From NCBI GenBank assembly GCA_934086955.1, contig CAKOIN010000006.1, forward strand, positions 2,159 through 66,158: a DNA stretch of 64,000 nt, written 5' to 3'. The notes under the pieces were generated by a model. The model did not search any database. It was not told where the DNA came from and worked only from the letters and a program-made list of their open reading frames with translations. Made by a program: the position numbers and the translations under genes. How positions within the stretch are numbered: position 1 is the first letter of the stretch; every line of letters begins with the position of its first letter. Of this stretch, positions 673 through 62,605 are shown piece after piece. The DNA comes from an uncultured Bacilli bacterium. Lineage in GTDB: Bacteria; Bacillota_I; Bacilli_A; RF39; UBA660.

Positions 673-1602
673 TTATAATTTATTCGTGATTTTTATTCCA
701 GTATAGTAATGTTTTAATATTTCATCATAACTATACCCATCATGTGCCATATAGTTTGCACCATATTGACTCATACCAACACCATGTCCATAACCAACAG
801 TATGAATATAAACAAAATCTTTATCATAAGTAATACTAAAATCAGTAGACCTAAGACCAAGTAAACCTCTAAATTTAGTACCCTTATAATTATTATTATT
901 TATTTTAATATTATTAACTCTATTCGTAGGACTCCTATCAATTTTAATATTACTTATTTTATCATCTTTAAGACTTAATTTTTTTAAAAAGTCAGACACT
1001 TTAATTTTAATATCTTTTTCATTATTATTAGATTTCTTATCCCAAGAAGAATCAACAGAAACTAAATAATCTAATTTTTGACTAAAAACATTTTCTACAT
1101 TTTCAGTTTTACCATTAGAAATAGAAAAATAAAATGCAATAATTACTTTATCATTATATGTCATATACTCACCTTTAGTATCATTTACTGCATTACTTAT
1201 CTTAGTATAATATTTATTATAATTACTTTTCCACTTTGATTTCATTTTATCATTATCAATATAACATTGATCACTAATAGTAGTTTTTACACTTTTACCT
1301 TTAGAAATTTTATATAATGCAAATGTTCTAGCTGCAACAGACATAGCTTTTAATGCTTCACTATTAAAAGAAGCTGGCATTTCACAAGCAACTACCCCTT
1401 TTACATACTCTTCCAAATCTAAATTAACAGTTTTATCATCAATTATTGCATTAACAGTAATAGTACTTTCTTTTTCATCTTCTTCTAAATAATTATTTAA
1501 AACTATATTACTATCTTCATCAACAATAAATTCTTTTTTATTACTATAACTCAACATTAAAAATAAAAACACAATAAAAAATACTATGAATTTTCTCTTC
1601 AT
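673..1602 (-). CDS. spoIID: Stage II sporulation protein D (SpoIID/LytB-domain lytic transglycosylase)
   Basis: Signal/TM N-terminus. Conserved SpoIID core EEYVKGVVACEMPASF..EALKAMSVAARTFAL. Confidence 0.7.
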   Translation of the reverse strand: MKRKFIVFFIVFLFLMLSYSNKKEFIVDEDSNIVLNNYLEEDEKESTITVNAIIDDKTVNLDLEEYVKGVVACEMPASFNSEALKAMSVAARTFALYKISKGKSVKTTISDQCYIDNDKMKSKWKSNYNKYYTKISNAVNDTKGEYMTYNDKVIIAFYFSISNGKTENVENVFSQKLDYLVSVDSSWDKKSNNNEKDIKIKVSDFLKKLSLKDDKISNIKIDRSPTNRVNNIKINNNNYKGTKFRGLLGLRSTDFSITYDKDFVYIHTVGYGHGVGMSQYGANYMAHDGYSYDEILKHYYTGIKITNKL

Positions 1603-2466: not shown

Positions 2467-3198
2467 CTATTCATCCTTCTTTACAGTCTTTTTTACATTA
2501 GATTTCTTTGTTTTTTCACCACTAACTTTAGCTTCTTTAACATTAGCTTTTTTAGGTTCAACAGTTTCTTCTTTTTCTTCACTTACTTCTTTTTGATCAC
2601 TAACAACAACAGTATTCATAAGTAAATCATGAAGACCACAAGCATCAGGTCTAAACATTATAAATCCAAGAGATCCATAAACTATTAACATATCAATAAG
2701 TTCAACAATTCTATTAGCTTGTAAATACATTGATTGACTCATTGTACTTATAAATATTACAAGAATAATAGATGCGATAATTTCATTAATCAATAAACTT
2801 CTAACAAGTATTTGTACAAAACTTGCTCTTTTACCATTTTTAGATTTAACTCTAATTTTCATTAACCTTTTACCTATTGTTTGACCCTTATTAAGATATT
2901 GAAAAACAACAAAATATCCAAAAGTAATAACAATATTTAAAATAGAATTAGGAATTTGTAATTTAGCTAATCTATAACTAAAATTCTTATATTCATCCCC
3001 ACTCATTATATTTTTTAATCCATCACTTGTTGTACTATTCTTTTCAACATAAGTTGTAAATTCATCATAAACCTTATCATATTCTTCCGCATTAGGATTT
3101 AATAATTCTATTTTAGAAAATAACATGAATATAAATGCAACAACAGCTATATCAATAATATATGCACATACTCTTTTAAACACTGGCTTTTCCATCAT
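2467..3198 (-). CDS. RDD-family membrane protein with lysine-rich tail
   Basis: Three TM topology with an R..D..D-like central motif. Family assignment is tentative. Confidence 0.4.
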   Translation of the reverse strand: MMEKPVFKRVCAYIIDIAVVAFIFMLFSKIELLNPNAEEYDKVYDEFTTYVEKNSTTSDGLKNIMSGDEYKNFSYRLAKLQIPNSILNIVITFGYFVVFQYLNKGQTIGKRLMKIRVKSKNGKRASFVQILVRSLLINEIIASIILVIFISTMSQSMYLQANRIVELIDMLIVYGSLGFIMFRPDACGLHDLLMNTVVVSDQKEVSEEKEETVEPKKANVKEAKVSGEKTKKSNVKKTVKKDE

Positions 3199-4648
3199 CT
3201 GCCTCCTTTACTTTCTTAGGTTTCTTATATAAGAATGATAAAAGACCACTCTTCTTCTTAATCAACCCATCTATATTATATTTTGAATTAATATTTTTGT
3301 AAATAGTATTGGCAAGATCATAAACAGTTCCTTCATTTAAAGTATAAGCCGTTTTTATTAAATAGTAATCATCAATAACAAGAGGAACTCTAACAGAAAA
3401 ATTAACTTTTCCAACTTCATGTTTTGAATTATACATTTCCTTCTCGATACCATATAAAGATGATATAAATAATGTAATCTTATTTTCAGAAACTAATTTA
3501 TCAAGTTCACCTATAATAACATCTATCTTTTTAAGTCTTTCAGCAATATCATCAACTAGTTTACAAGTATCAATCTCATAATTAATAATTATTAAATTTT
3601 CATTTGATGAATTTACTATTTGTAATAACTGAGAAGGCTCATAAATAAAACCACTATCAGAAGCCATATATCTTATACTTTCATCCACATTATTTCTAAG
3701 TCCAGTTAAATAATAATTTATATATGGACATTTTTCTTTTAAATCAATTACCAAACATTTAGCTTCAATAGCTTTAAGTGCACCAGCTGCATATGTTGAT
3801 GAAATAGCATAATTATACATAAATGGTACTTGTACATTACATTTAACTGGGAATAATGAATAATAACTCAATTTAGTTGTATCAATAGTTCTATATTTTT
3901 GACTACCAAGTTCAGTCATAAATAAATTGATGTCTATATTATTATAATTAAAGAATAATATTTGATCACCCTCATTAATAGCAAAACCATTATTAACAGA
4001 AAAAGTTCTTGTATGATTAGGTATTGTCTTAGTTTGAGTAAGAACCTCAACCTTTTTAGTTAAATCCTTCCACTTTTCACCAGCTTCAGTAACAAATGTT
4101 TTAATCATATCTCTAAAGCAAAGAATATTAGTTATATAATTTTCTCCAGTAACCATACCAACTTTAATAGTATTACCAAGTTCATAATTAAGTAATGTAA
4201 GACTTCTCTCAACACTCTTATAAACAGATAATGACTTTTGACATAATATTAAATGTACATAAATCATATGATTAGTATTTAAAGCAATCTCTTTTAAAAA
4301 CATTGATAATTGTGAAATAGTTCTATCATTTTCCCAATAACAAAACACATGTAATCTATTTTCATTCTCATTAGTTTTAGTTTCAATATACTTTAATAAT
4401 TGATTATTTTTATAAACATTATTAGAAAAATTATTTTCAATTATACTATATGTTAATGCTTCATTAATACCTATACTAAATTTTCTATAACCATCTTTAT
4501 AATCTAAATCTTTACTAGCAAGAGAAACAAATAATTTTTCCTTAGTAAGTCTATCCATATTTGGCATTAATGCTTCAGAATATACATTAACTGAATCAGG
4601 TTGTTCAACACCAAATCCATTAATTAGTAATAATATGTTCTTCTTCAT
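3176..4648 (-). CDS. Cofactor-independent phosphoglycerate mutase-like protein, apparently catalytically degenerate
   Basis: Colinear with iPGM: LLLINGFG resembles LILDGWG, ALMPNMDRL resembles A.TPNLDRL, and the C-terminal region resembles the ADHGN region. The Ser/His/Asp metal and catalytic positions appear substituted. Confidence 0.35.
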   Translation of the reverse strand: MKKNILLLINGFGVEQPDSVNVYSEALMPNMDRLTKEKLFVSLASKDLDYKDGYRKFSIGINEALTYSIIENNFSNNVYKNNQLLKYIETKTNENENRLHVFCYWENDRTISQLSMFLKEIALNTNHMIYVHLILCQKSLSVYKSVERSLTLLNYELGNTIKVGMVTGENYITNILCFRDMIKTFVTEAGEKWKDLTKKVEVLTQTKTIPNHTRTFSVNNGFAINEGDQILFFNYNNIDINLFMTELGSQKYRTIDTTKLSYYSLFPVKCNVQVPFMYNYAISSTYAAGALKAIEAKCLVIDLKEKCPYINYYLTGLRNNVDESIRYMASDSGFIYEPSQLLQIVNSSNENLIIINYEIDTCKLVDDIAERLKKIDVIIGELDKLVSENKITLFISSLYGIEKEMYNSKHEVGKVNFSVRVPLVIDDYYLIKTAYTLNEGTVYDLANTIYKNINSKYNIDGLIKKKSGLLSFLYKKPKKVKEADDGKASV

Positions 4649-21824: not shown

Positions 21825-21939
21825 ATTTTCAACCCCTTATATGAATAAATTTATTTAAAGTCAAAATATAATACCACATTTTTTTAAAAAGTCAAATCAA
21901 TTAAAAAAGACACTCATTTTACAAAATTCAATGAATATG

Positions 21940-22400
21940 ATATAATGTAGATGTATGGAGCATTATGCTAGTCAAACATACCACTAGAAGATGGGGCTAA
22001 AAATCCATCAATTGTGTAAAAATGATACTTTATATATTTTGCTTCTTTCGCCCAGATTGGGGTGGATATATAATTTTAGATTTAAGGAAAAGATGTAATG
22101 GCATATATCCGAATCCTTATATCAAATCGAAGAACACGAACACACATGTCGTGAGTGAATTATTGGGATAGAAATTGAAAAATAATTTGCAAAAGCGAAT
22201 AAAAGTGATTTATGTTTGTTTGGGAAAACCTCTAGTATGCCTATATTATAAGGATTGAAGTGCGGACTAAGTGGTGATCGAGTGATCATTATGGCAACAA
22301 ATGGTTAATTCTTTTAAAGAGAAATCGCCCTAGGGTAACCGAAGGTAAGAATTAGAGAAATTCAACTCGACCAAAGCCGTAAAATTAATTTATAATATTC
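21940..22400 (+). ncRNA. Candidate large structured ncRNA (OLE-RNA-like)
   Basis: About 450 nt, ORF-free and clearly GC-enriched relative to the flanks. Many local helices (GGATATAT...ATATATCC, CCCTAGGG, GATCgagtGATC). Immediately followed by a roughly 20 kDa 4-TM protein, the arrangement known for ole-oapA. Boundaries are approximate. Confidence 0.3.
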
Positions 22401-22425
22401 CATACACAAAACCAAAGGGAGTTAA

Positions 22426-22950
22426 ATGAAAAAAGATAATTGGATAATAAAGGCATTTTTAATGACTTTTTTTATAGCACTAATTTTCAGTAGTGCTTCA
22501 AATTTTATAATTGCAAAATATAACAATACAATATTACTTATACTACTATGTATTTTATTTATTGGCATAGGAATATTATTTGATATAATTGGAACAGCAG
22601 TATTAACTGCAAATGAAGCATCATTTCATGCTAAAAGTTCTAAAAAAATAAAAGGTTCTAAAGAAGCTGTAAGATTAATAAAAAATTCAAGTACAATTGC
22701 AAGTATATGTAATGATGTTATTGGAGATATATGTGGAATAGTTAGTGGTTCAGTAGGAGCTATGCTTGCTATTAATATATCAGTAAAATTTGATTTATCA
22801 ACAATAATTGTAACATTATTAACAAGTTCAATAATATCTTCACTAACAGTTGGAGGTAAAGCAATTGGTAAAAAATATGCAATTAAAAAAAGCGATACAA
22901 TAATATTTGTAGTAGCAAAAATATTAAATAAATTAAAAATAGAGAAATAA
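22426..22950 (+). CDS. Four-TM small membrane protein, possible OapA (OLE-associated protein A)
   Basis: 174 aa with 4 predicted TM helices. Lies directly downstream of the structured non-coding segment. Confidence 0.3.
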   Translation: MKKDNWIIKAFLMTFFIALIFSSASNFIIAKYNNTILLILLCILFIGIGILFDIIGTAVLTANEASFHAKSSKKIKGSKEAVRLIKNSSTIASICNDVIGDICGIVSGSVGAMLAINISVKFDLSTIIVTLLTSSIISSLTVGGKAIGKKYAIKKSDTIIFVVAKILNKLKIEK

Positions 22951-22957
22951 CTTTTCT

Positions 22958-23209
22958 CTATTTTTTTTGATTTAATCTTTCAGTAAATAAATTACCAACA
23001 GTTTCTAATACTTGAACATTATCAATATCAACTAAGATAATATTACCATTTATATCTTTCTTACCTTCAACAATTATATAATTATTAGTTATGCCTTCTT
23101 TTTCATTATCTACTTGAAGCCCCATAAGATAATTTTTTCCTTCATATGACATTTCATCTAATACATAATATTCAAGGCCATTATCTAATGTTATTACTTT
23201 ATCTATCAC
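22958..23209 (-). CDS. DUF1292-like small acidic protein
   Basis: The pattern ITL.DNG.E..YVLDE...EGKNYL....D.E.EG...VEG..D.NGNIILVD resembles the YrzB/DUF1292 family. Confidence 0.4.
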   Translation of the reverse strand: MIDKVITLDNGLEYYVLDEMSYEGKNYLMGLQVDNEKEGITNNYIIVEGKKDINGNIILVDIDNVQVLETVGNLFTERLNQKK

Positions 23210-24828
23210 AATGTAGGTCCTCCCATTCCACTAACTAATTCACTAGCTGAAATCCAAGCTTGATCTTTTCCTGCTTTATCCATTACAGAAACTGCTACAC
23301 TACTTGGATCTATACCATTTGCAGCACAGAATTCTTCAATTGATAAACCGTTAGTATTTATAACTTGACCTATTGATCCATCTGGATTAACTGCGGCAAA
23401 TCTTCCAAAAATCGAATCACCATTTACATATTGAGATAATAATGGTTTAGTTTCAATTCCCATAACAGCTCTATCAGAACTAATATGACCAACACTTACA
23501 TTATAGTCTCCTACTTCACTACCTATTCTAATACCATCATACTGAGAAACTGGATCTACAGCTGAAGTTGGTTGAGGTGTAGTTACTGTTGGAGTTGGTT
23601 GAGGCGGAGTTACCGTTGGATTTGGATTAGTAATATTAGGTGCAGGTTCTGGATTTGGAGTTGGCTCTACTGCGGCTGGGGTTGCTGCATTATGAGCTTG
23701 AATCAAATTATGAACAGTACTTGCAACAGTAAGAGTTCCACCAGTAATAATCGCAGAATTAATCATCCAAGACATATCTCTTAGACCTTCTTCTGTCCTA
23801 AACTTATTCTTAACCCTATCAACTAAACCTTTTAATCCAGGTCTAGGTTCAACAACAGTATTTATTTTACTTTGCAATCCAAGTCGATTCAACTCAGCTA
23901 TTTCTTTTCTTCTTTTATTAATGAATTTGTTAGCTATACCACCTGCAAGTGACATAACACCTACACCAAGTGGACCAGCTGTAAAGAATACAGCAGCACC
24001 AAGTCCAATACCTGCTGCTACATGTAATATTGTTTTCCATGTAACTTTTGGCTTATTAGACTTAACTTTAGGTCGTTCTGGTTCATCCGGCTCTGGTTCT
24101 TCTGGACCTGGTCCATCTGGACCTTCAGGTGGGATTGGAGGAATTGGATCTCCTATATCTACAGGTCCATTACCGCCTGGACCTCCCGGGCCATCTGGAC
24201 CCTCAGGACCAGGTCCCTCTGGGCCAGGTCCATCAGGGACACCATTCCCAGGACCTTCAGGACCATCATGAGTTGGCTCAACAGGAGTTCTATCCACAGT
24301 CATATTCTTTGGTATACCACCATATTTAAGTTCTCTCATTCTTTGCATTATATGACTTTTTTCAACCATTAAATCATTAAGAGCTAATTCATTCTCTTCA
24401 ATTCTTTTTCTAGCATCTTCTTGTAATTTAGCTAATGATGCTGGCATCTCATGACCTTCAGCCATCTGTACACTAGCAATATTAGTATCCTTTTCAATAG
24501 CTTTTTCTAAATCTTTAATTTGTCTTGATACTTCTATTCTTCTTTTACCAAGTTCTAAATACTCAGCTTCCTTCTTTTCAATAATAACATTAAACTTATT
24601 AGCATTCTCATATGCTATATCAGTTATTCTATCAATTCTAGCTTTTTGTTCACTACTAAGTTCATTATCATTTTCAATTTGAAAAGCTTCATTTTTAACA
24701 TTATCAAAAATCTCAAATCTTTTTCTAAGTTCTTCAAGACCATAATATTCAATATCAAGTTCAGCCAAATCTTCTAATTCAATAGTTTCTTGCAAAACTT
24801 GTTCTAATCTATCCATTCTAACATTCAT
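23206..24828 (-). CDS. Membrane protein with coiled-coil N-domain, collagen-like Pro/Gly-rich linkers and a globular C-domain
   Basis: The GPEGPGNGVPDGPGPEGPGPEGPDGPGGPGG low-complexity tract is visible in the DNA as GGN/CCN repeats. There is one strong TM segment (ILHVAAGIGLGAAVFFTAGPLGVGV) and a second PT-rich linker. Confidence 0.4.
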   Translation of the reverse strand: MNVRMDRLEQVLQETIELEDLAELDIEYYGLEELRKRFEIFDNVKNEAFQIENDNELSSEQKARIDRITDIAYENANKFNVIIEKKEAEYLELGKRRIEVSRQIKDLEKAIEKDTNIASVQMAEGHEMPASLAKLQEDARKRIEENELALNDLMVEKSHIMQRMRELKYGGIPKNMTVDRTPVEPTHDGPEGPGNGVPDGPGPEGPGPEGPDGPGGPGGNGPVDIGDPIPPIPPEGPDGPGPEEPEPDEPERPKVKSNKPKVTWKTILHVAAGIGLGAAVFFTAGPLGVGVMSLAGGIANKFINKRRKEIAELNRLGLQSKINTVVEPRPGLKGLVDRVKNKFRTEEGLRDMSWMINSAIITGGTLTVASTVHNLIQAHNAATPAAVEPTPNPEPAPNITNPNPTVTPPQPTPTVTTPQPTSAVDPVSQYDGIRIGSEVGDYNVSVGHISSDRAVMGIETKPLLSQYVNGDSIFGRFAAVNPDGSIGQVINTNGLSIEEFCAANGIDPSSVAVSVMDKAGKDQAWISASELVSGMGGPTL

Positions 24829-29670: not shown

Positions 29671-30048
29671 TTAATAAACTTTAGGAAAATCCATTAAACC
29701 TTCCGTCTTTCCTTCTCTCCAATATATTTTGTTATCTTTAACTTCAAAACTATAAGTTACTTTATATTTATAATCATCATCACTTTTTTGATAATAAAAT
29801 ACTAGTTCAGACATACCATCATTATTACTCTCAAATACAAAAGATGTATCATCATGACTTACTTCTTTTAAACTATCGTTATTTATTTCATAAGTCCAAT
29901 CTTTACTTTCATCAAGTTCTTTATAATCAATAGTGACAGTATCTTCAAATACACTTAATAGTTTATCATCAAGTTTTGGTTCATAAAACATAATACCAAC
30001 AAGTCCTACAATAGTTAAAACAAATATAATTACAAATCTCATTAACAC
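29671..30048 (-). CDS. Small secreted or membrane-anchored hypothetical protein
   Basis: N-terminal signal-anchor. No domain recognised. Confidence 0.3.
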   Translation of the reverse strand: MLMRFVIIFVLTIVGLVGIMFYEPKLDDKLLSVFEDTVTIDYKELDESKDWTYEINNDSLKEVSHDDTSFVFESNNDGMSELVFYYQKSDDDYKYKVTYSFEVKDNKIYWREGKTEGLMDFPKVY

Positions 30049-30570
30049 TCCTTAATAAACAAAAAGCAACCAGTCCTGATAAAACTTGATTGCTTCGAGT
30101 TTCGAAAAAACTAATTATGAATCATTTATTTTATAATAATAATTATAAAATAAATACTTCTAAATATTATCAGTATTTAGCATAATTACTTATCATTTTG
30201 AGTTTTTCTTTCTCAACGATATATCATTTGTCCTTAGTAGATAAGTATTCTATTTCTTAAATTAATAAGACTATTTATTATTTATATATAATAAGTAATA
30301 TTAATTTATAAATAAGATAGATACATAAATTTATAATAAATTAATATTATAAATAAACATATAATTGAAATATAAATTTTAATATACCAAATATAAATAA
30401 TGAAATAAATATAGAATTTTTTCACTAAAATAATTTAGATTATATTTTATTATATAATATATAAATAATTAAATTTAAATACCACTAATAATTTATATAA
30501 CCAATTATCTATTGGACAATATTATTATATGAATATTATTATCAAATGTCAATACTTTTTTAAAAAAAAT

Positions 30571-30598: not shown

Positions 30599-32104
30599 TT
30601 ATTTATCATGTAATAAATTACTTTTGTCACTATAAGATGTATGCAATAATTTAAAGCTCTTTTCACTTAAAGGTTTATTTAAAAATTCCTTATATAAAAT
30701 CTTTAATTCTTTATTATCATGAGCACATCTAATAGCTCTATTTGAATCTATTGACTCGATTCCTTTAGATCTTTCTTCTCTTATTTTATCAAGTTTAGGT
30801 ATTGCACAAAGTGGTTGACCACCTCCGCCAATACATCCGCCTTTACAATTCATTACTTCTATAAAATGAAATTTTTTATAATAATCATTTTCAAGTAGTT
30901 TTTCCAAATTTTCCATTTGTTGAACAACTGCAACTCTAAGTCTATACTTGCCTATCATAACAGTAGCTTCTTTTATTCCTTCAAATCCACGAAGTTCGTC
31001 AAAAACAAGTTCATCTTTTTTCATATTATGTTTTGTCATAATTCTATATAGTGTTCTTATGACTGATTCACAAACACCACCAGAATTTCCAAATAAAACT
31101 CCGCCTCCACTACTTTCACCCATCATTTTATCAAATGGAGTATCTGATAAATTAGCTAGATTTATATCATCTTCTTTTAACATTATTCCAAGTTCACTTG
31201 TTGTGATTACATAATCTATATTCGGAGTATATTCTCTTGCTTCCATCTTTTTAGATGTACAAGGTGTTATAGCCACCGTAACTATCTTAGATGGATCAAT
31301 GCCTCTTTTCTCACAAAAATATGATTTTATAATTGCACACTGCATTCCAATTGGACTTTTACAAGTTGATAAGTTAGATAATATTTCAGGATGATACACT
31401 TCAGCATATTTTACCCAAGCAGGACAACAACTAGTAAATTGTGGTATTGGACCTTTATTTGTTAATCTTGCAGCAAACTCAGCAACTTCCTCTAAAATAG
31501 TTAAATCAGCTCCAAATGCTGTATCAAAAACATAATCAAATCCAGATTTCTTTAAAGCTGTAACTATCTTACCTTCTGCATTTACACCAGCTTCCATATT
31601 AAAACATTCACCAATAGCAACTCTAACAGCTGGAGCTATAATTGCTATAACAATTTTATCATTAGAATTAATAATATCTTTTACATCTCTAAATGAATAT
31701 TTTGGTATCATCGCACCAGTTGGACAATTCAAGATACATTGACCGCAACCAATACAAATAGGTTCCCTACACTTATTTAAATCATATCTTAAATTAACAA
31801 TATTTTCACAAGTCTTCTTACATTGACCACAATTAATACATTTTTCAGGTATTCTACCAATTGCATGATTATTAGAACTAACCCTTACTTTTTTATCTTC
31901 TTCTTTATCATTGATTATTTTATCCACTTTAACTTCTAATGCTGCATCAACCACTGAATCAATAATTGCATCTAATGCACTAGAACTAGCAGTTTCATCT
32001 CTTTCTTCAAACTCCCTGGCACCACACATAGGGCAAACATAGTCATCAGATATTTTATCTACCGATACTAAATATCCACATAACTTACAAATATATTTTC
32101 CCAT
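30599..32104 (-). CDS. hydA: [FeFe]-hydrogenase catalytic subunit with N-terminal rubredoxin-like zinc ribbon and 2x[4Fe-4S] ferredoxin domain
   Basis: H-cluster motifs TSCCPAW, ITPCTSKK and MNCKGGCIGGGGQP. Two CxxCxxCxxxCP ferredoxin motifs. N-terminal CKLCGY...CPMCG. Confidence 0.85.
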   Translation of the reverse strand: MGKYICKLCGYLVSVDKISDDYVCPMCGAREFEERDETASSSALDAIIDSVVDAALEVKVDKIINDKEEDKKVRVSSNNHAIGRIPEKCINCGQCKKTCENIVNLRYDLNKCREPICIGCGQCILNCPTGAMIPKYSFRDVKDIINSNDKIVIAIIAPAVRVAIGECFNMEAGVNAEGKIVTALKKSGFDYVFDTAFGADLTILEEVAEFAARLTNKGPIPQFTSCCPAWVKYAEVYHPEILSNLSTCKSPIGMQCAIIKSYFCEKRGIDPSKIVTVAITPCTSKKMEAREYTPNIDYVITTSELGIMLKEDDINLANLSDTPFDKMMGESSGGGVLFGNSGGVCESVIRTLYRIMTKHNMKKDELVFDELRGFEGIKEATVMIGKYRLRVAVVQQMENLEKLLENDYYKKFHFIEVMNCKGGCIGGGGQPLCAIPKLDKIREERSKGIESIDSNRAIRCAHDNKELKILYKEFLNKPLSEKSFKLLHTSYSDKSNLLHDK

Positions 32105-37638: not shown

Positions 37639-38139
37639 TTAAAATATTTTTTTAAAGAATTCTAATATCTTAAAATCATATTTTATCTCTTCATCAAAAT
37701 TATCATCTATCATACACAAAGGAGGATATAAAATACACCAATAATTATTTCCTTTTGCCTCTCCAATAGTTACTACTAATGATTCATATTCACCATCTTT
37801 ATAAGTAATTCCATTGTATTTTTTAACTGGAAAATAATTCATTCCATAATTAACCTCAAAATTCATATTATAGTTATTATTATTAAAAAGTCTCTCTATT
37901 TCTTCTTCAATATTACTTATATTATTAATAATATTATTTCTAGTAATTTCCTTATCATTATAATCATTAAAAACATATTTAGATATTTTATTAACAACCA
38001 TTTCTTTCATAAGAATATCTTTACTAGAATTACTATTAGAAATAACTCTAAATCTAATCGCATCATCATTACTATAATTTTCAATATTAAAAAGTATTAC
38101 ACCTATAATAAACAATATTATAATTAACAATTTTTTCAT
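37639..38139 (-). CDS. spoIIR: Stage II sporulation protein R-like
   Basis: IRFRVISNSNSSKDILMKEMVVNKI matches the SpoIIR hallmark (RFHVIANSDS..D..LKL.VRD). Syntenic with prmC-prfA, as in Bacillus. Confidence 0.5.
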   Translation of the reverse strand: MKKLLIIILFIIGVILFNIENYSNDDAIRFRVISNSNSSKDILMKEMVVNKISKYVFNDYNDKEITRNNIINNISNIEEEIERLFNNNNYNMNFEVNYGMNYFPVKKYNGITYKDGEYESLVVTIGEAKGNNYWCILYPPLCMIDDNFDEEIKYDFKILEFFKKIF

Positions 38140-40581: not shown

Positions 40582-42498
40582 ATGAAAAAAATAACATTAA
40601 TTATCAAAATATTTATATTTTTATTCTTCACTTGTATTATAGTAAATATGAGCTTTTATGCTTATGCTTTTATCACACCAAAATTTCAAATTAATACTAG
40701 TAAAAACATAACTTATTATGACTCTAAAAACAATGATATACTTAAAGATAGTGTAGAAAACGACTTTGTAGAACTCAAAAAAATAAATAAATATGTCACA
40801 ACTGCTATAGTATCAATTGAAGATAAAAATTTTTATTCCCATAAGGGATTTGATTATTTAAGAATTCTTAAAGCAATGTTAGTTAATATTAAAAGTGGAA
40901 AAATAAAACAAGGTGCATCTACTATATCTCAACAATATGTTAAAAATCTTTACCTAACATTTGATAAAACTTGGAATAGAAAAATAGAAGAAGCACTTTT
41001 AACCCTTGAATTAGAAACTCATTATAACAAAGATGAAATATTAGAAGGATATCTTAACACAATAGATTTTGGAGCTGGAAATTATGGTATAAAAGAAGCA
41101 AGTAAATATTATTTTAATAAAGAACCAAAAGATTTAACACTCGAAGAAGCAACAATATTAGTCGGAATACCTAGAAATCCAAGCTACTATAATCCAATTA
41201 ACAATTATGATGCGGCTAAAAAAAGACAAAAAGAAGTTTTAAATAGTATGGTAAGAAATAAATATATAACTAAAAAAGAAATGAAAGAAGCTTATAATAA
41301 AAAATTAAATTTCTATGGAAAAAATGATAAAGTTGAATTATCTAGTATTTATTATTATAAAGATGCTATTTTAAGTGAATTAAAAAATATAAAAGGACTT
41401 CCAAGTTCACTTTTAGATATGGATGGTTTAAAAATATATACTAATTTAGATGTAGATATACAAAAAGAATTAGAACACAATATAGATAATGAAATGAAAG
41501 ATACAACATTACAAGTAGCATCAATTGTAATAGAACCAAATACAGGTAAAATAGTTGCTCTTATTGGTGGTAAAGATTATTCTAAATCACAATTTAATAG
41601 AGTAACATCATCAAAAAGACAAGTTGGATCAACAATTAAACCATTACTATATTACTCTGCTCTTGAAAATGGGTTTACACCGTCCAGTACATTTCTAAGT
41701 GAAAGAACAACATTTAATTTGGGAAATACAACATATTCTCCTAAAAATGCTAACAATATTTATGCTAATAAAAATATATCAATGTTAACAGCACTATCAT
41801 ACTCAGATAATATTTATGCTATGAAAACTCACTTATTTCTAGGCATGGATAATCTTAGTAAAATGGGTAAAAGATTAAAAATCAGTACACCAATTAAAGA
41901 AAATGCATCATCAGCTCTTGGAACAACAGAAATAAATATGATTGATTATAGTAATGCATTTATAACATTAGCAAATGAAGGTGAACACACAACACCTCAC
42001 ATAATAGAAAAAATAACTGATAATAATGATAGAGTTTTATATGAATTTAAATATCAAAATGAAAAAGTATTAAATAAAAAATATGTTTATATATTAAACA
42101 ACCTATTAACAGAAACATACGATTATAGAATGATTGGATACACATCTCCAACATTACTTAGCATTTCAAATGAACTTGATAGTAAATATGCAGTTAAAAG
42201 TGGAAGTACCGAAACAGACTATTGGACTATAGGATACAATAAAAACTATTTAATAATGGTTTGGACAGGTAATGACAACAATGATAAAGTTATTGGAAAA
42301 GATTCAAAAATAACCAAAAAAATATGGTCAAAAACAATTACAAATATTAAAACTAATAAAAAAGAATGGTATGAAATTCCAAAAGGAATAACAGCTAGTA
42401 CTATAAATCCACTTACTGGTGAATACAAAGATAATGGAATAGTTTGTTTTTATGAAAAAGGTACAGAACCAAATTATATAGAAAAAATTGCAAATTAA
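40582..42498 (+). CDS. Class A penicillin-binding protein (glycosyltransferase plus transpeptidase)
   Basis: GT51 motifs (EDKNFYSHKGFD, STISQQ). TPase STIKP (SxxK), SDN, KSGS. Confidence 0.8.
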   Translation: MKKITLIIKIFIFLFFTCIIVNMSFYAYAFITPKFQINTSKNITYYDSKNNDILKDSVENDFVELKKINKYVTTAIVSIEDKNFYSHKGFDYLRILKAMLVNIKSGKIKQGASTISQQYVKNLYLTFDKTWNRKIEEALLTLELETHYNKDEILEGYLNTIDFGAGNYGIKEASKYYFNKEPKDLTLEEATILVGIPRNPSYYNPINNYDAAKKRQKEVLNSMVRNKYITKKEMKEAYNKKLNFYGKNDKVELSSIYYYKDAILSELKNIKGLPSSLLDMDGLKIYTNLDVDIQKELEHNIDNEMKDTTLQVASIVIEPNTGKIVALIGGKDYSKSQFNRVTSSKRQVGSTIKPLLYYSALENGFTPSSTFLSERTTFNLGNTTYSPKNANNIYANKNISMLTALSYSDNIYAMKTHLFLGMDNLSKMGKRLKISTPIKENASSALGTTEINMIDYSNAFITLANEGEHTTPHIIEKITDNNDRVLYEFKYQNEKVLNKKYVYILNNLLTETYDYRMIGYTSPTLLSISNELDSKYAVKSGSTETDYWTIGYNKNYLIMVWTGNDNNDKVIGKDSKITKKIWSKTITNIKTNKKEWYEIPKGITASTINPLTGEYKDNGIVCFYEKGTEPNYIEKIAN

Positions 42499-42532: not shown

Positions 42533-43678
42533 TTATTCTTCTATTTTTTCTCCACAATTACTGCAGAATTTTCCAGTTACAGGAGTTCCGCATTTAGGAC
42601 AAACTTTTTCTTCTTTCTTTTCTTCTTTTTTAGCAAAGATTGTGCCCATCTCTGGTTGATTAGTTTCTGGTTTATAACCTTCAACATCAGAACCTTGATT
42701 TGCAGCATTCATCATAGAACCAGCTGCTCCACTTGCCATATTCATTCCCATGAATCCCATCATAGATCCATTTTCATTACTAGCAGCACTTCTAAGAGCA
42801 TCAGCTGAAGCAGAAGCCATTAATCCAGATTGTAAATTCTTATTAGAGAATATTGTAGCCTCATCTATCTTATTTACTTTAACCATTGATTCATCAGTTA
42901 AGTTAATATCACTTAAAGCAACATCAGTAACTTCTAAACCATAATTTTTTCTCCAAGATTCATCTAAACATACATTCATTTCATCTGAAATATCAGAATT
43001 ATATAATCCCATATCACCAAATGAAACTTTATTTTTTCTCATAACAACAGAAATTGCTTGAGTTAATTTTTCTACAAACTTACTTTGTAATTGACTACCA
43101 ACTACTTCTTCATAAGTAACAGTATCAGATGGATTAGCACCAATAACACTATTTACTAAAAGAATTGGATCAACTACTTTAAAAGCATATTCACCAAAGA
43201 ATGTTACTTCTAACATACCATATTTTTCATCAGTAATTTTCTTTGGTTGTGGTGAACCAAACTTATTACCAGGAATATTTAATAAATTTACATAGTAAAC
43301 TCTTTGATCCTTAGCTGTTTGACCTCCATAAGTAAATCTCTTACCAATAGTCTTAAATGTATCAATAATGCCTTTTCCAAGACCACCAGTAAATATACTT
43401 GGTTCACTACTAGTATCAAAATAGAAAGTACCAGCATCTGCAGTAAATTCCTTTATTTCTCCATTTTCAATAATCATCATTGCCATTCCTTGTGGAACTA
43501 CAATTGTACTACCATTAGTAATAATTCCTTCAGAAGGATTTTTATTACCTTTTCCATGATTAACAATTCCTCTTTGTATTAAAACATTTTTAGAAATTGT
43601 AGGACATGTCACAAACTCCTTAAATTGATCACCTAAGGCAGTAGTTGTTGCCTCAGATAAAGCTTTAATAAGACCCAT
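42533..43678 (-). CDS. SPFH/band-7-like protein with C-terminal CxxC...CxxC zinc ribbon (YdjI-like)
   Basis: N-terminal SPFH-like domain. C-terminal CPKCGTPVTGKFCSNCGE. Confidence 0.5.
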   Translation of the reverse strand: MGLIKALSEATTTALGDQFKEFVTCPTISKNVLIQRGIVNHGKGNKNPSEGIITNGSTIVVPQGMAMMIIENGEIKEFTADAGTFYFDTSSEPSIFTGGLGKGIIDTFKTIGKRFTYGGQTAKDQRVYYVNLLNIPGNKFGSPQPKKITDEKYGMLEVTFFGEYAFKVVDPILLVNSVIGANPSDTVTYEEVVGSQLQSKFVEKLTQAISVVMRKNKVSFGDMGLYNSDISDEMNVCLDESWRKNYGLEVTDVALSDINLTDESMVKVNKIDEATIFSNKNLQSGLMASASADALRSAASNENGSMMGFMGMNMASGAAGSMMNAANQGSDVEGYKPETNQPEMGTIFAKKEEKKEEKVCPKCGTPVTGKFCSNCGEKIEE

Positions 43679-43766: not shown

Positions 43767-43788
43767 AAGAACTCTAATTAGAGTTCTT
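43767..43788 (-). terminator. Perfect 22-nt palindrome AAGAACTCTAA|TTAGAGTTCTT overlapping the stop of the ParB/Noc gene
   Basis: Followed on the minus strand by a T-run. Confidence 0.5.
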
Positions 43789-44973
43789 ATCAATTTCAAT
43801 TATTATTTGATATGAATCAGTTAAATCCAATTCAGTTGTAGTAATTAAATTACTAACTTCATCTAAACTAGAAATAAAATCTCTTACTTTATTAATTACA
43901 TTAGGCAAGTTAACTGAACCATCTTCTTCAAGTAATGAATCTTTATCTAGATATTCTTCTTCACTAGGAACTACTGGTTCTTCATAACTAACAGGTACCG
44001 TTTCAGTAACTGTACTTGATGGTACAACCGGATTTTCAGGTAAAACTTCAGTAGTTTTTGCAACTATAGGAGTTAATTCTTGTGAATTATCTATTGCATT
44101 AGCATAAGATTCCTTATCAAAACTTGTTTGTGTAATATTAGGGGTAGAAGCTGTTTGAAATGGATTTATAATTTCAGATTCATCAACATACTCAGTCATT
44201 GCTGCTTTTGCTTCAGGTTCAATTTTAACAACTTCTGGCACTCTTATATCTAAATATTCTTCAACTTGTTTATTTCCTAACATTTGTTCTTTTGATTCAA
44301 CTTTTGGTTCAATTTTTAAAAATCTTTTAATATCATCAGGTAATTCTTCTTGTTCTTTATTTCTATTTAATATTGCACTTATTTCTTCTTCTGTTTGCTT
44401 TACAGTAAGTTTTTCAGTAATAATTTTATTTAATAAATTCTTTTGCATATCAGCATCTGGAAGTGATAATAAACTTCTAGCATGTCTTTCTGATATTCTA
44501 TTATACAAAAGAGCATTTTGTACTTCTTTTGGTAAATTTAATAGTCTCATCTTATTAGCAATAGACGATTGACTTACACCTAATTTAGAAGCAATATCTT
44601 CTTGTGTGAATCCTCTATCCATTAACTTTTTATATGATTGTGCTTCCTCAATAACAGATAAATTCTTTCTTTGTAAATTTTCTAATAATGCTATCTCAGC
44701 ACTTGTATTATCATCTGTATTATTAATAATCGCAGGAATCTTTTTAAGACCAGCTAAACAAGAAGCCTTATATCTTCTTTCACCAGCAATAATCTCATAC
44801 TTATCCCCGATATTTCTAAGTACAATAGGTTGAATAACACCATATTTTATAATAGAATTAGCAAGCTCATTTAACTCTCTTTCATCAAAAGCTAACCTTG
44901 GTTGAAATCTATTCGGAATAATATCCTCAATAGGTATATAATAAATTTTTTCTTTTTCTTTGTTTTCTTCCAT
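43774..44973 (-). CDS. noc: ParB/Noc-family protein, more Noc-like than Spo0J-like, with a roughly 150-aa low-complexity C-terminal extension
   Basis: Noc-type motifs are IPNRFQPR, GVIQPIVLR, GERRYKAS, an HTH helix ending QSSIANKMRLL (Noc QSTIANKLRLL, Spo0J RPHIANHLRLL) and ISERHARSL. Sits immediately downstream of rsmG, the noc position in Bacillus. No soj/spo0J follows. Confidence 0.5.
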   Translation of the reverse strand: MEENKEKEKIYYIPIEDIIPNRFQPRLAFDERELNELANSIIKYGVIQPIVLRNIGDKYEIIAGERRYKASCLAGLKKIPAIINNTDDNTSAEIALLENLQRKNLSVIEEAQSYKKLMDRGFTQEDIASKLGVSQSSIANKMRLLNLPKEVQNALLYNRISERHARSLLSLPDADMQKNLLNKIITEKLTVKQTEEEISAILNRNKEQEELPDDIKRFLKIEPKVESKEQMLGNKQVEEYLDIRVPEVVKIEPEAKAAMTEYVDESEIINPFQTASTPNITQTSFDKESYANAIDNSQELTPIVAKTTEVLPENPVVPSSTVTETVPVSYEEPVVPSEEEYLDKDSLLEEDGSVNLPNVINKVRDFISSLDEVSNLITTTELDLTDSYQIIIEIDKNSN

Positions 44974-45051
44974 AATATTATCCTTTTTCCCTACTATATA
45001 TTTATTTTAAAGCATTTTAAAGTTTTTATCAAGTTAATAACAAGATATTTA

Positions 45052-45762
45052 CTATTTATTTTTATATGTTTTTAAAATAGCACTATAACTTCTAGGATAC
45101 TTTTTATCAGTTATCTTATTTTTTTTGTATATTGGTATGCATCTATATGCATTTGTAATAGGTAATTCATATTCTATTCTATTTTCATGGGATAAGTTAA
45201 ATTTATTAATTATTTGATTAGCAACCTTTATTTCCTCATCAATATTTGATTTTAAAGGCATTAATAAACCATCAACTTTTAATAATGAAGTAGATAATTC
45301 AATAATAATTGGTAAAGCTGTAACAGCTCTACAAGTAACTATATCAAAGATTTCTCTATTTTTAACTGCATATTCTTCAACTCTACCATTTACTATACTA
45401 ACATTATCTAAATTTAATTCTTGTTTAATTAAATTAAGAAACAAACATTTTTTAGCATTTGACTCAATTAATGTAACATCAATATTATTAAAAACTATCG
45501 CTATTACCATACCTGGGAAACCAGCACCAGTTCCAAAATCTAATAATGTCTTTTTATCGTTTAAATAACCAGTTTTATTTAAACACAATGAATCATAAAA
45601 ATGTAATAGAAATACATCTTCATAAGAAGTGATAGTTGTCATATTAAATTTTTTATTATATTCAACTAATAACTCATAATATTTGTATAGTTTATCATAT
45701 AATTCATCAGTTATTTCAATATTAATATTTTTACAATATTCTTTAAATTTTTCTTTATTCAT
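45052..45762 (-). CDS. rsmG: 16S rRNA (guanine527-N7)-methyltransferase
   Basis: GidB family, SAM motif LDFGTGAGFPG. Confidence 0.85.
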   Translation of the reverse strand: MNKEKFKEYCKNINIEITDELYDKLYKYYELLVEYNKKFNMTTITSYEDVFLLHFYDSLCLNKTGYLNDKKTLLDFGTGAGFPGMVIAIVFNNIDVTLIESNAKKCLFLNLIKQELNLDNVSIVNGRVEEYAVKNREIFDIVTCRAVTALPIIIELSTSLLKVDGLLMPLKSNIDEEIKVANQIINKFNLSHENRIEYELPITNAYRCIPIYKKNKITDKKYPRSYSAILKTYKNK

Positions 45763-51150: not shown

Positions 51151-52623
51151 TCATTTGTATTCTATTAAATTTACCAATGAATTTCTAAGTTCTACAAAAT
51201 TTTGATATTTATTTATATATTTATATATATCTTTTAAAAATTCTTCTCCACTTACAATTCTTCCATCTTTTAAATAAACTATAGAATCAATAGAAATTGA
51301 ATCTAATACATTATTTTCTTTAAAATATTCTTTAACAGTAGTTTTTTTGCCATCAAAAGTATCAACAACTTTATTTCCATATTCAATATTTAAAGGAAAC
51401 ATAAATACTTCTTTTTTTGAAAAATCTTCTTCCTCTTTGATATTTAATTCTACTTTATAGTTATTTTTAATAGCAAATTTTAATATTTTATTTACTTCAT
51501 CTAATGGAAATCCCATTTTTTTATAAGCGAAGAATCCACTTGAAAATAATAACATTAATTGATATATATGATCATTATTCATATTTAAAAAATTTAAGTT
51601 TTGAGCAACATTTTTATAGTTATCAGATAAAATCTTACTATATATACTATAAAAATAACTATAATACTTACTACTTTCTTCTTTTTTTATGACATTTTCA
51701 TAAAATTTTGAATATATAGCATTTAAATAATCTTCACTACCAAATGAAATAATCCTTTTATCATCTTTATGTTCAAAATATATCATCTTATCTTCATCTA
51801 ATTTAAGATTAAACTCACTCATTTCAAAACTTCCTATATCTAAAGATGAGTTATAATCAAAAAGCTCAAATACATCTTTATTATTAATAATAATATCTAA
51901 TGTTTTATATATTATTAAAAGCATCCTTTTTTTATTTAATTTTCTTTCTATTTTATACTTATTTAATATATATTCATAATAATCTTTTAATATAGAAAAA
52001 TTTTCAATTTCAAAATTTTCTTTCTTAAAATCACTAAAATATTCGTATAAAAGCAACATATAAAAATTTTTAAAATTATAAGGTCTATATTCAGAAGAAA
52101 TTCCTAACAAATTAGTTTGTGGTATGAAAGGAATTATTCTTGATTTAACTTCATTTTCGATATCATTATCACTTTTAAAGAAATTAATTATCTTTCTTGC
52201 ATTATTTACATTATCCACTCTTATTTGTAAAAGAGGATTTTTAACTACCTTCATTAACTTAATTTTAGAATTTATTTTATTTTCTATTAAAAAATTCAAA
52301 ATTTTTATTGTTATTTTTTCATAATTATTTTCAAAAACTGGTACATCAATTATGATATCAGGTATTGAAACATTCTGTAAATTATATTCTAGGTTTATTT
52401 TATAAGAATATTTAAATTCTTTATATGAGAATTTTGCCTTACTTTCGGGCAAAATTGACAATATCTGTTCAAATATTTTTTTGGTTATTTGAATTATATT
52501 TTTATTTAAATCACCTATTTTTACATTAAAACTTAAACATGTATTTATAAATTCTTCAAAATTTTTTTGTTCATAAATTGTATATAACTTTTTAAAATAA
52601 TCTTCTATCTGCATTCTATCCAT
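51151..52623 (-). CDS. Hypothetical 490-aa protein inserted between rpmH and dnaA
   Basis: Long uninterrupted ORF with no motif recognisable by eye. Its position interrupts the normally adjacent rpmH-oriC-dnaA arrangement. Confidence 0.35.
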   Translation of the reverse strand: MDRMQIEDYFKKLYTIYEQKNFEEFINTCLSFNVKIGDLNKNIIQITKKIFEQILSILPESKAKFSYKEFKYSYKINLEYNLQNVSIPDIIIDVPVFENNYEKITIKILNFLIENKINSKIKLMKVVKNPLLQIRVDNVNNARKIINFFKSDNDIENEVKSRIIPFIPQTNLLGISSEYRPYNFKNFYMLLLYEYFSDFKKENFEIENFSILKDYYEYILNKYKIERKLNKKRMLLIIYKTLDIIINNKDVFELFDYNSSLDIGSFEMSEFNLKLDEDKMIYFEHKDDKRIISFGSEDYLNAIYSKFYENVIKKEESSKYYSYFYSIYSKILSDNYKNVAQNLNFLNMNNDHIYQLMLLFSSGFFAYKKMGFPLDEVNKILKFAIKNNYKVELNIKEEEDFSKKEVFMFPLNIEYGNKVVDTFDGKKTTVKEYFKENNVLDSISIDSIVYLKDGRIVSGEEFLKDIYKYINKYQNFVELRNSLVNLIEYK

Positions 52624-52659: not shown

Positions 52660-52850
52660 AAATATTATGTTAACTTATTTTTGAATTTATTATGTTAACT
52701 TTATCAACAATGTATCAACATTTTATGTTAACTTATCAACAAGTTATTAACAATTCAAGTTTACATAATAATTTTAAATTGTTGATATTGTTGATAACTA
52801 TAAAAAATAATCTAAATTAAAGGAAAAAAATGTTTACAAAATGTGGATAT
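52660..52850. promoter_or_regulatory. oriC DnaA-box cluster upstream of dnaA
   Basis: TTATCAACA at about 52701 and 52733, GTATCAACA at about 52712, the complement TGTTGATAA at about 52789, TGTGGATAT at about 52841, and TATGTTAAC repeated three times. Confidence 0.6.
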
Positions 52851-55677: not shown

Positions 55678-55726
55678 AATAGTGTGTGCTATTATAGTGG
55701 CCATTAAAAAGAAAGGGGGAAAAATA

Positions 55727-56182
55727 ATGAATTATGAAATTACTTATGATACACAAGTAATAGCACCTATTGATAAGAACACAGCAAAAGTAATAGAAAC
55801 TGATGCAGAATATATAATAGAAACTCCCGTGTTAAATATTCTTGAACATAGTTGTGAATATTTTGGAAGTTCTTATGAAGGAAGAAAAGAAGGTACTAAG
55901 AAGTTGTTAGGCATAACACATAAATCTCCAATAATAGTTGAAGAAAGCAGAAAAATAATATTTTTTCCAACTTCATCAGCCGAAAATGAAGATTGTATAT
56001 GGATTAATTTAGAAAAGATAGATAAATATTTCAAATTAGGTCCAAAAAAATCAGCAATAAGATTTCAAAATGGTGATTTTATAGAATTTGATGTATCATA
56101 TGGATCACTTTCTAATCAAATTTTAAGAGCTACTAGATTAAAATTTATACTTGAAGAAAGAATATTAAAAAAAGATAATTAA
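55727..56182 (+). CDS. comK: ComK-family competence transcription factor homolog
   Basis: LEHSCEYFGSSYEGRKEGTKKLLGITHKSPIIVEESRKIIFFPTSS, DCIWINL and VSYGSLSNQILRATRLK align to B. subtilis ComK (VDRSCRFFGSSYAGRKAGT...HKPPIMVDPSNQIFLFPTLS...CGWI...ISYNSFENQVYRTAWLR). Start taken at ATG 55727 after AAAGGGGGA. The track ORF begins at an upstream GTG. Confidence 0.6.
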   Translation: MNYEITYDTQVIAPIDKNTAKVIETDAEYIIETPVLNILEHSCEYFGSSYEGRKEGTKKLLGITHKSPIIVEESRKIIFFPTSSAENEDCIWINLEKIDKYFKLGPKKSAIRFQNGDFIEFDVSYGSLSNQILRATRLKFILEERILKKDN

Positions 56183-61743: not shown

Positions 61744-62605
61744 AATGTTCCATGTGGAACATTTTTTATTATTAAAAAAATTATTTCCCGGGAAATAATT
61801 TTAAATTAATATAGAATATCAAAAAAAAGTTATTAACAATGTTCCACGTGAAACATAGTATATCTATTAGCATAAAATTTTGATTTTGATTTTTAAATAT
61901 ATTATTTTGGATGTTAACCAATCAAAACAATTAATAATGTTCCACGTGGAACATTATTAACAATTAAACTATTTAAAAAATATTTATTTTTTGTTTTAAT
62001 AATTTAAATAATAGGATTATTTATGATAGAGTAAAAAAATATTTTTTTATAATGTTTCACGTGAAACATTATTAACACTATAATATAAAATATTTATATT
62101 GCTTAATTATCTATTTCTAAAATTGATTTATAAAGTTTTATAATAAAAATATAAGATATAAATATATATGCATTAAAAGAATAGTTTTCACTCAAAATTA
62201 TATAATGTTCCATGTGGAACATTATTAACAGAAAAAAAATAATTATAGAGAATACTTAACTAAAAAACAATTTAATATTAACTAACGATTAACATATAAT
62301 ATAAATTAATTAAAAAAGAATAAAATTTATAATACACATTTAAACTAAAATTAAATAATGTTCCACATGGAACATTATAAATGAAATATTTTAAATTAGG
62401 ACTAAAGCAACTAAAAAATTATAATAACTTTGCTAGAAATGGGTAAACCTATTATTTTTAACAATACAACATTAATATTACATATGGAATACTAATATGA
62501 ATATAAAAATAATAAAAAATATTAACAAGATATTTAATATAACATAATAAGATTTATAATTGATAACATTTAAAAAGTTATTAACAATGTTCCACGTGGA
62601 ACATA
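61744..62605. repeat. parS: Array of seven parS-type 16-bp palindromes (TGTTNCACGTGNAACA) in non-coding DNA
   Basis: Cores at about 61746-61761 (TGTTCCATGTGGAACA), 61840-61855 (TGTTCCACGTGAAACA), 61938-61953 (TGTTCCACGTGGAACA), 62053-62068 (TGTTTCACGTGAAACA), 62206-62221 (TGTTCCATGTGGAACA), 62359-62374 (TGTTCCACATGGAACA) and 62588-62603 (TGTTCCACGTGGAACA). Most are embedded in a longer unit TTATTAACAATG...CATTATTAACA. Confidence 0.7.
61781..61798. promoter_or_regulatory. Perfect Noc-binding-site-type palindrome TTATTTCCCGGGAAATAA (NBS consensus ATTTCCCGGGAAAT)
   Basis: Exact 14-bp NBS core within an 18-bp perfect palindrome, 20 bp after the first parS. Confidence 0.5.

Follow-up and report, generated by a model that had tools for sequence, protein, structure and literature searches.

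The DNA considered here, referred to as the window, is a stretch of 64,000 nucleotides from the genome of an uncultured Bacilli bacterium (contig CAKOIN010000006.1 of assembly GCA_934086955.1), and the subject is a Noc-like ParB-family gene on its minus strand (43774..44973), an open reading frame (ORF) of 399 amino acids (aa) plus the stop codon. The gene lies 78 bp downstream of rsmG (45052-45762, PF02527) and is read from the same, minus strand. The minus-strand order near the replication origin, oriC, is rnpA, yidC, jag, mnmE, mnmG, rsmG and then the noc-like gene; the GC skew changes sign at the start of dnaA, which is at 52951 and on the plus strand. As we describe below, the 399-aa protein sides with Noc on every test that was run, while judging from its sequence it lacks a feature by which the function of Noc is defined. 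We regard it as a known protein in a notable variant form and not as a system of a new type.

On the downstream side the gene is followed by the gene of an SPFH/Band_7_1 protein with a C-terminal zinc ribbon (42533-43678, minus strand) and, beyond it on the opposite strand, by that of a class A penicillin-binding protein (PBP; 40582-42498, plus strand); past the PBP gene lies the gene of the RNA polymerase delta subunit, again as assigned by Pfam. An earlier, sequence-only reading of this DNA had placed a ParB-family gene downstream of rsmG, in the gidB/rsmG-adjacent position of noc, and had an SPFH protein and a PBP follow it. The ORF, Pfam and PF02527 assignments agree with this placement, and rsmG lies directly upstream here and in 25 relatives. 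The synteny mnmG, rsmG, noc-like gene, (SPFH), PBP1, rpoE is kept in these 25 related genomes and in the genome L040, in all of which the gene holds the rsmG-adjacent noc position. A consensus scan of the minus strand found a promoter-like site, TTGATA-17-TAAAAT, in the gap between rsmG and the noc-like gene (45004..45032; 10 of 12 matches, a pattern match only), and a terminator-like hairpin (43767..43788) that overlaps the noc-like stop codon ahead of the SPFH gene. The noc-like gene thus probably has its own promoter and terminator, and the hairpin suggests that it is not co-transcribed with the SPFH gene.

The DNA-binding core of the protein consists of an N-terminal ParB_N domain of the type that binds cytidine triphosphate (CTP), at aa 8-101 (44671..44952, minus strand; PF02195, E = 5.6e-33; predicted local distance difference test score, pLDDT, of about 90), followed by a helix-turn-helix (HTH) DNA-binding domain at aa 103-204 (44362..44667, minus strand), in which Pfam places HTH_ParB at aa 103-201. 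This pair of domains is shared by Noc and by ParB/Spo0J, so it does not discriminate between them. The Noc-type motifs that the sequence-only reading had pointed to, IPNRFQPR, a recognition helix and ISERHARSL, are all located in the ORF, as IIPNRFQPR at aa 18-26, SQSSIANKMRLL at aa 134-145 and ISERHARSL at aa 160-168. In a 50-sequence alignment (A1), PNRFQPR, GERR and ENxQR are invariant columns, and the residues G64, E65, R66, R67, E98, N99, Q101 and R102 show no variation.

The question of whether the protein is of the Noc type or of the Spo0J type was approached from several sides. Its best NCBIfam match is the hidden Markov model (HMM) TIGR04285, nucleoid_noc, with 278.7 bits versus 171.8 bits for the generic parB_part model. 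A sequence search of the PDB gave 207.7, 201.1 and 185.5 bits for the Noc structures 7nfu, 7ng0 and 7ol9 versus at most 160 bits for every Spo0J/ParB structure, and in a fold search with the AlphaFold model the Noc structures were ranked at the top, with 52% identity. The structural alignment with Noc of Bacillus subtilis and Geobacillus thermoleovorans (7ol9, 7nfu, 7ng0, 6y93) gives 48-52% identity over ParB_N and the HTH domain. When the DNA-binding domain is superposed, it fits the complex of the Noc domain with its binding site (6y93) with a TM-score of 0.89-0.92 versus 0.60-0.74 for the complex of the ParB domain with parS (6s6h). With Spo0J/ParB (6sdk, 1vz0, 6t1f) the protein has in common the superfamily fold and the motifs of the CTP switch, and its gene, too, lies close to the origin and has a parS array in the vicinity. 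It differs from them, however, in its specificity residues, in its Noc-type C-terminal domain, in its lower sequence and fold scores than against Noc, in having no adjacent parA and in having no ParA-stimulating peptide: the N-terminus, of 16-19 aa, is acidic and without an LG(R/K)GL-type motif. The sequence-only reading had also called the protein Noc-like and not Spo0J-like, and here the HMM, the PDB sequence search, the PDB fold search and the specificity residues all side with Noc. The reference sequences of Noc, Spo0J, Soj and Caulobacter ParB served only as probes and alignment anchors, and the conclusions on Noc and Spo0J rest on the HMM, PDB and published evidence.

One of these tests concerns the four residues by which ParB and Noc tell their DNA sites apart. 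These are R-T-A-G in ParB versus Q-K-K-R in Noc; Q173 selects the A at position 1 of the site and R201 the C at position 6, and one Lys at either 179 or 184 is sufficient for function (PMC7383237). In the deep mutational scan of the same study, parS-specific variants always had R173, and variants specific for the Noc-binding site (NBS) carried the Q, the R and at least one K or R (PMC7383237). With the columns anchored on motifs in the alignment, the alignment of these HTH residues that the sequence-only reading had proposed returns Q135, K141, N146 and R163 for the window protein, equivalent to ParB positions 173, 179, 184 and 201. This QKNR set is of the Noc type, as opposed to the RTAG of ParB (R-T/H-A/T-G in Spo0J/ParB more broadly). 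Three of the four residues are identical to those of Noc, and K141, at position 179, is the permissive lysine; where a parS reader would have the invariant R173 and a small residue at 201, the protein has Q135 and R163. Since these residues fit the published rules and a perfect NBS lies in the window, the protein is predicted to bind the NBS and not the seven parS sites. Which of the two sites it would bind had been left open before; from the specificity residues and the NBS, the question can now be answered for the most part, in favour of the NBS.

The perfect NBS, TATTTCCCGGGAAATA, is 16 bp in length (61782..61797) and becomes a 22-bp palindrome with its flanks. It was missed in the sequence-only reading, is expected 1.3e-5 times per window from base composition, and is the predicted cognate loading site of the protein. 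It is found inside the array of seven parS-like sites (61746..62603) that had already been recognized, between the first parS, 20 bp away, and the second, 42 bp away. The seven sites compare with an expectation of 0.17 and are predicted not to be cognate. They form a compact, centromere-like array in the non-coding gap of about 950 bp between gyrA and the signal recognition particle (SRP) RNA gene, with spacings of 94, 98, 115, 153, 153 and 229 bp, and they are near-perfect matches to the consensus; the first, which immediately follows the stop codon of gyrA, is set in an A6-palindrome-T6 sequence that resembles a terminator. The NBS and all seven parS are retained in six other contigs of the species, and the parS array is also kept in a related species (L036). 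The CCCGGG hexamer occurs just five times in 537 kb of DNA of the lineage, and two of the five are perfect NBS. The second one, at 3114-3129 of the related contig L025, falls within the coding part of rsmG, about 280 bp ahead of a gene for a 605-aa Noc-like protein. The RsmG frame runs through it (N-I-S-R-E-I) and uses the rare codons TCC and CGG there, which argues for selection at the DNA level. These sequences make a good case for selection on the canonical NBS in genomes carrying the family. No further NBS or parS was found in the added flanks (about 30 kb on the right; 10 kb on the left plus about 20 kb in relatives), and a metagenome scan with an extended parS returned the same centromere locus in the species and one relative, together with two unrelated genomes, and no extra parS locus and no parB.

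A separate observation on the same array concerns the element TTATTAACA, which abuts five of the seven parS in one orientation (at 61830, 61954, 62069, 62222 and 62578) and is also found at 52744 and 52865. There are 22 copies of it in the window against 5.1 expected, and it is one base off the TTATCAACA boxes clustered upstream of dnaA (52701-52797). The parS sites may therefore have DnaA-box-like elements beside them.

If the protein does not read parS, the array calls for another reader. Neither tblastn of the 64-kb window with probes for Soj, Spo0J and Noc nor Pfam on the scanned ORFs of at least 100 aa found another ParA or ParB. In the 25 relatives and L040, the 10 kb flanking the noc-like gene on each side contain no soj or spo0J; in the species, no ParA or ParB is encoded from about 63 kb left of oriC to about 40 kb right of it, nor over about 20 kb more in relatives. 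The earlier description of a lone gene with no soj or spo0J at its locus stands only for the locus and for this region around oriC. A soj and parB pair does occur in the related contigs L025 (10636-12370) and L026 (9139-10873), the latter retrieved solely via a chance peptide match. As the missing chromosomal parAB this pair was rejected: its two copies share about 99% identity although the sequences around them are unrelated, and the ParB (317 aa) is of the "HPF" type. A secreted protein is encoded downstream, and the module is probably cargo of a mobile (conjugative or integrative) element.

These results can be read in another way, in which the window protein would be the sole ParB-family protein of small genomes and would act as the centromere protein, either by binding both parS and NBS or by spreading from the NBS, and would take over the Spo0J role in origin organization and SMC loading. 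The region surveyed around oriC without finding soj or spo0J is where Firmicutes normally keep them, the same absence recurs around the gene in the relatives, the genomes are reduced (about 1.1-1.3 Mb), and the arrangement with the NBS between the first and the second parS is kept in the species. However, the deep mutational scan leaves no room for parS-specific binding by a protein with Q as its first specificity residue, seven near-perfect, conserved parS imply a dedicated binder of the R173 type, and the search covered about 100 kb around oriC. We hold this account to be improbable. Because the parS array is conserved and near-perfect and a protein with Q173 is not expected to read it, the most economical view is that a separate canonical ParB elsewhere in the genome, with ParA absent, is the more likely situation.

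In Staphylococcus aureus, spo0J presumably lies away from the noc/rsmG locus. This species has Spo0J and Noc and no Soj (PMC7142367), and it provides a Firmicute precedent for Noc and ParB in a cell without ParA/Soj, which also speaks against a sole ParB-family protein here. The precedent is not a complete match. S. aureus Noc is a member of the canonical family, in which every protein examined has the N-terminal helix (PMC4331003), whereas the window protein has none; nor was a canonical ParB located in the roughly 100 kb surveyed here.

One departure of the protein from Noc is at the N-terminus. In the alignment its first residue falls at about residue 21 of B. subtilis Noc, and 19 aa stand ahead of PNRFQPR versus 39 in Noc and 32 in Spo0J. 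There is no room for an N-terminal amphipathic helix, since a stop closes the frame 11 codons ahead of the ATG and no start codon falls between; what N-terminus there is happens to be acidic, with a hydrophobic moment of 0.16. The sequence-only reading had likewise seen no obvious amphipathic helix of the Noc kind, and the alignment, the upstream stop and the moment agree on this point. For Noc itself, Adams et al. described aa 1-15 as extremely conserved and predicted an amphipathic helix in all homologues examined; the NocNΔ10 protein, which lacks this helix, loses function, and the helix is thus essential, although it binds the membrane weakly and needs multimerization to do so (PMC4331003). 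Jalal et al. further described it in 2021 as a CTP-regulated membrane switch (PMC8429893).

The other departure is in the middle of the protein. The AlphaFold model, built on the 50-sequence alignment, has a folded ParB_N plus DNA-binding region (aa 10-204, pLDDT of about 90), a short helix at aa 213-219, disorder over about aa 226-345 (pLDDT of about 45-54) and a helix-strand-strand domain at aa 346-396 (pLDDT of 84-91). We accordingly mark aa 205-345 (43939..44361, minus strand) as an acidic, intrinsically disordered linker, with pLDDT below 50 over most of aa 226-345, and aa 346-399 (43777..43938, minus strand) as a Noc-type C-terminal domain, presumably for dimerization, whose fold is confident at aa 346-396. 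The 140 residues of aa 206-345 include 24 E, 15 V and 13 P, with 32 D+E versus about 13 K+R, so that the Pro/Val/Glu-rich character noted before is confirmed. The accompanying claim of a C-terminal tail of about 150 aa fails, however: because a conserved, folded Noc-type domain comes after it, the Pro/Val/Glu stretch is better described as an expanded inter-domain linker. In Noc the connector between the DNA-binding and C-terminal domains is short and basic; in the window protein it is about 140 aa, acidic, disordered and provided with short motifs.

The assignment of the C-terminal domain started from the last 40 or so residues (…INKVRDFISSLDEVSNLITTTELDLTDSYQIIIEIDK), which align with the Noc C-terminal domain in an alignment of the clade. 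The assignment was retested independently, with the AlphaFold model above and in two other ways. A construct from which aa 217-344 were removed aligns to the whole of TIGR04285 (2-255 of 255) with 289.5 bits. The C-terminal domain of the 605-aa homologue of L025, taken alone, has TIGR04285 as its only match (positions 212-255, E = 3e-5). The C-terminal domain of the window protein, taken alone, had no match in NCBIfam, an outcome of the filters of HMMER.

Three short motifs stand out in the linker. The first, PDDIKRFLKIE (aa 212-222; 44308..44340, minus strand), is an amphipathic helix conserved in the clade alignment and confined to the close clade. The second, VPEVVKIEPE (aa 245-254; 44212..44241, minus strand), comes from the clade alignment, where the form (K/R)(V/I)P(D/E)VVxI is kept in members down to about 50% identity; patterns of the P[DENS][IVF][IV] type are present in 39 of 144 family linkers. 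The third, INPFQ (aa 269-273; 44155..44169, minus strand), is conserved in nearly all members of the clade and found in members down to about 41% identity, and NPF occurs in 37 of the 144 linkers. Exact INPFQ was counted in at least 12 of the first 60 representatives listed, with about 0.06 expected from composition, and on the strength of this excess of copies we regard it as a genuine short linear motif.

The first of these motifs is relevant to a rival explanation, namely that the protein is a conventional nucleoid-occlusion Noc whose membrane contact has been relocated, either to the DDIKRFL helix or, in trans, to the neighbouring SPFH protein. Residues 210-220 have the highest hydrophobic moment of the protein, 0.83, and are predicted to be helical, and Noc's own helix, as mentioned above, is a weak binder too. 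The DDIKRFL helix (aa 213-219) was the best candidate for a relocated membrane helix and was rejected all the same, being short and specific to the close clade: it has about three hydrophobic residues between acidic flanks, and the pattern I.[KR][FYW][LIVM] is found in just 6 of 144 diverse family members. The SPFH protein was rejected as a membrane adaptor as well. Its gene adjoins the noc-like gene in most of the close clade, but this adjacency is a subclade feature, absent in L018, L019, L025 and L040, the terminator-like hairpin separates the two genes, and no membrane segment is obvious in the SPFH sequence. We therefore regard a relocated contact of either kind as unlikely.

One could also suppose that the protein is a decaying or mis-assembled ParB paralogue, in which the low-complexity region is junk without function; the middle region is indeed of low complexity and the homologues vary in length. 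This does not agree with a full-length ORF that is intact in hundreds of independent assemblies, with N-terminal, DNA-binding and C-terminal domains that are strongly conserved together with their invariant catalytic and DNA-reading residues, or with a linker that is acidic throughout the family and holds conserved short motifs. Decay is, in our judgement, very nearly negligible as an explanation.

How widespread is this design? A phmmer search against 1.84 billion cluster representatives was carried out and the best 150 clusters at 50% identity were analysed, so the family comprises at least 150 clusters. All 150 share the helix-less, long-linker design. Typically about 16 aa stand ahead of PNRFQPR; the N-terminus before the motif is 19 aa or fewer in 144 of the 150 representatives, and the few longer ones are without a Noc-like helix. 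The signature at the specificity positions is Q-K-x-R, with R last in all and Q first in all but one, a fragment without the region. The median total length is 443 aa, the shortest member having 227 aa and the longest 744. All of the 144 linkers that could be scored are net negative (median net charge per residue -0.13), and a Noc-type C-terminal domain (…YQIIIKIxK) ends 108 of these 144 members. The hosts are uncultured bacteria of gut and rumen that carry the labels Bacilli, Tenericutes, Mycoplasmatota or "Clostridium sp. CAG:524", with a GC content of about 22-29%; for the diverse representatives, the names of cluster members give no finer taxonomy than a "Clostridium sp." MAG. The only complete genome of the lineage (CP091728.1) has 1.14 Mb. 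In the source annotations the protein is named just "ParB/RepB/Spo0J family partition protein". Far from being an oddity, it is, judging from these sequences, part of a large and as yet unstudied family whose hosts are uncultured gut bacteria of low GC content.

Taken together, the protein is like Noc in its Q/K/R specificity residues, its Noc-type C-terminal domain, its rsmG-adjacent gene and the canonical 16-bp NBS in its genome, and we favour, as the somewhat more probable account, that it is the Noc orthologue of this lineage in a derived form: a CTP-dependent NBS clamp with a Noc-type C-terminal domain, no membrane helix and an acidic linker. Several points weigh against this account. The N-terminal membrane-targeting helix (Noc aa 1-10) and helix alpha2 are both absent, and since the former is required for Noc function, nucleoid occlusion as it is known, in which Noc brings DNA to the membrane and keeps Z-rings from assembling over the nucleoid, cannot be assumed for the protein. 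Position 184 has N and not the K of Noc, and this N is family-wide (QKNR in 107 of the 150 representatives). The TIGR04285 score stays below the curated cutoff of 315 bits both for the native protein and with the linker removed. A single NBS is found in about 100 kb, inside the parS array, which does not demonstrate the distribution typical of Noc, with sites scattered over the chromosome and absent from the terminus region; B. subtilis has an NBS about every 60 kb. The same 100 kb or so around oriC yielded no canonical ParB, and its existence is deduced from parS alone. Lastly, no partner has been assigned to the linker motifs. Because the membrane helix is absent and the curated cutoff is not reached, we would not classify the protein as a bona fide Noc, even though it would act in the manner of a Noc-type NBS clamp.

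In the favoured account of a derived, helix-less Noc orthologue, the protein would load at the NBS as a CTP-gated clamp, dimerize through its Noc-type C-terminal domain and spread locally. The position of the loading site would place the clamp on the centromere region, about 9 kb from dnaA. The protein itself would not tether DNA to the membrane directly. Instead, the linker motifs (INPFQ, VPEVVxI and, in the clade, DDIKRFL) would probably recruit a partner, and this recruitment would replace membrane binding as the output of the clamp; a steric or electrostatic effect of the linker is an alternative output. The seven parS would be served by a separate canonical ParB, encoded outside the roughly 100 kb surveyed and working without ParA.

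The window and its flanks have several other features that deserve a brief mention. The right flank carries dnaX, ybaB, recR, bofA, holB, yaaT, pth, mfd, spoVT and tatD, and further on ksgA, veg, spoVG, yabP, divIC, tilS, ftsH and tsaBD; the left flank carries a LytTR response regulator and histidine kinase with agrB, a cold-shock protein, a ribosome hibernation factor, secA and variable genes. Genes for SpoIID and SpoIIR are present in the window (673-1602 and 37639-38139), and the right-flank contigs L031/L041 encode BofA, SpoVT, SpoVG, YabP and a YabG-like peptidase; the 1.14 Mb of CP091728.1 is unusually small for a putative spore-former. A ComK-family gene (55682-56182) sits between dnaN and recF in an otherwise canonical dnaA-dnaN-recF-gyrB-gyrA block, and this insertion is kept in the species and in L040. 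An ornate large extremophilic (OLE) RNA at 21939-22419 (219 bits) is followed directly by an ORF for a CNNM-like membrane protein (22426-22950). A PGK RNA motif (30160-30252, minus strand; 82 bits) lies between an [FeFe]-hydrogenase gene (30599-32104) and an ORF of 125 aa (29671-30048) with no family match. Three larger minus-strand ORFs have no significant Pfam family: one of 490 aa (51151-52623) that adjoins oriC between rnpA and dnaA, one of 540 aa (23206-24828) in a GC-richer patch (0.31 versus 0.25), and another of 490 aa (3176-4648).

A bolder possibility, which we consider doubtful, is that the family represents a large and so far unrecognized branch of the Noc/ParB CTP switches without membrane binding, in which the acidic linker recruits a partner through INPFQ and other short motifs to NBS-loaded clamps in the centromere, and perhaps the sole ParB-family protein of its putatively spore-forming hosts, coupling the origin to division, replication or SMC loading in a way unlike either Noc or Spo0J. 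The more modest account has implications as well. If the helix-less protein is functional, as its conservation implies, then Noc-type clamps would have a second, membrane-independent output, and this would contradict the assumption that Noc homologues always tether the membrane. The analysis further indicates that the rsmG-adjacent "ParB" genes of many uncultured low-GC gut Bacilli are of the NBS type and not of the parS type, which matters both for their annotation and for what is deduced from them about chromosome segregation.

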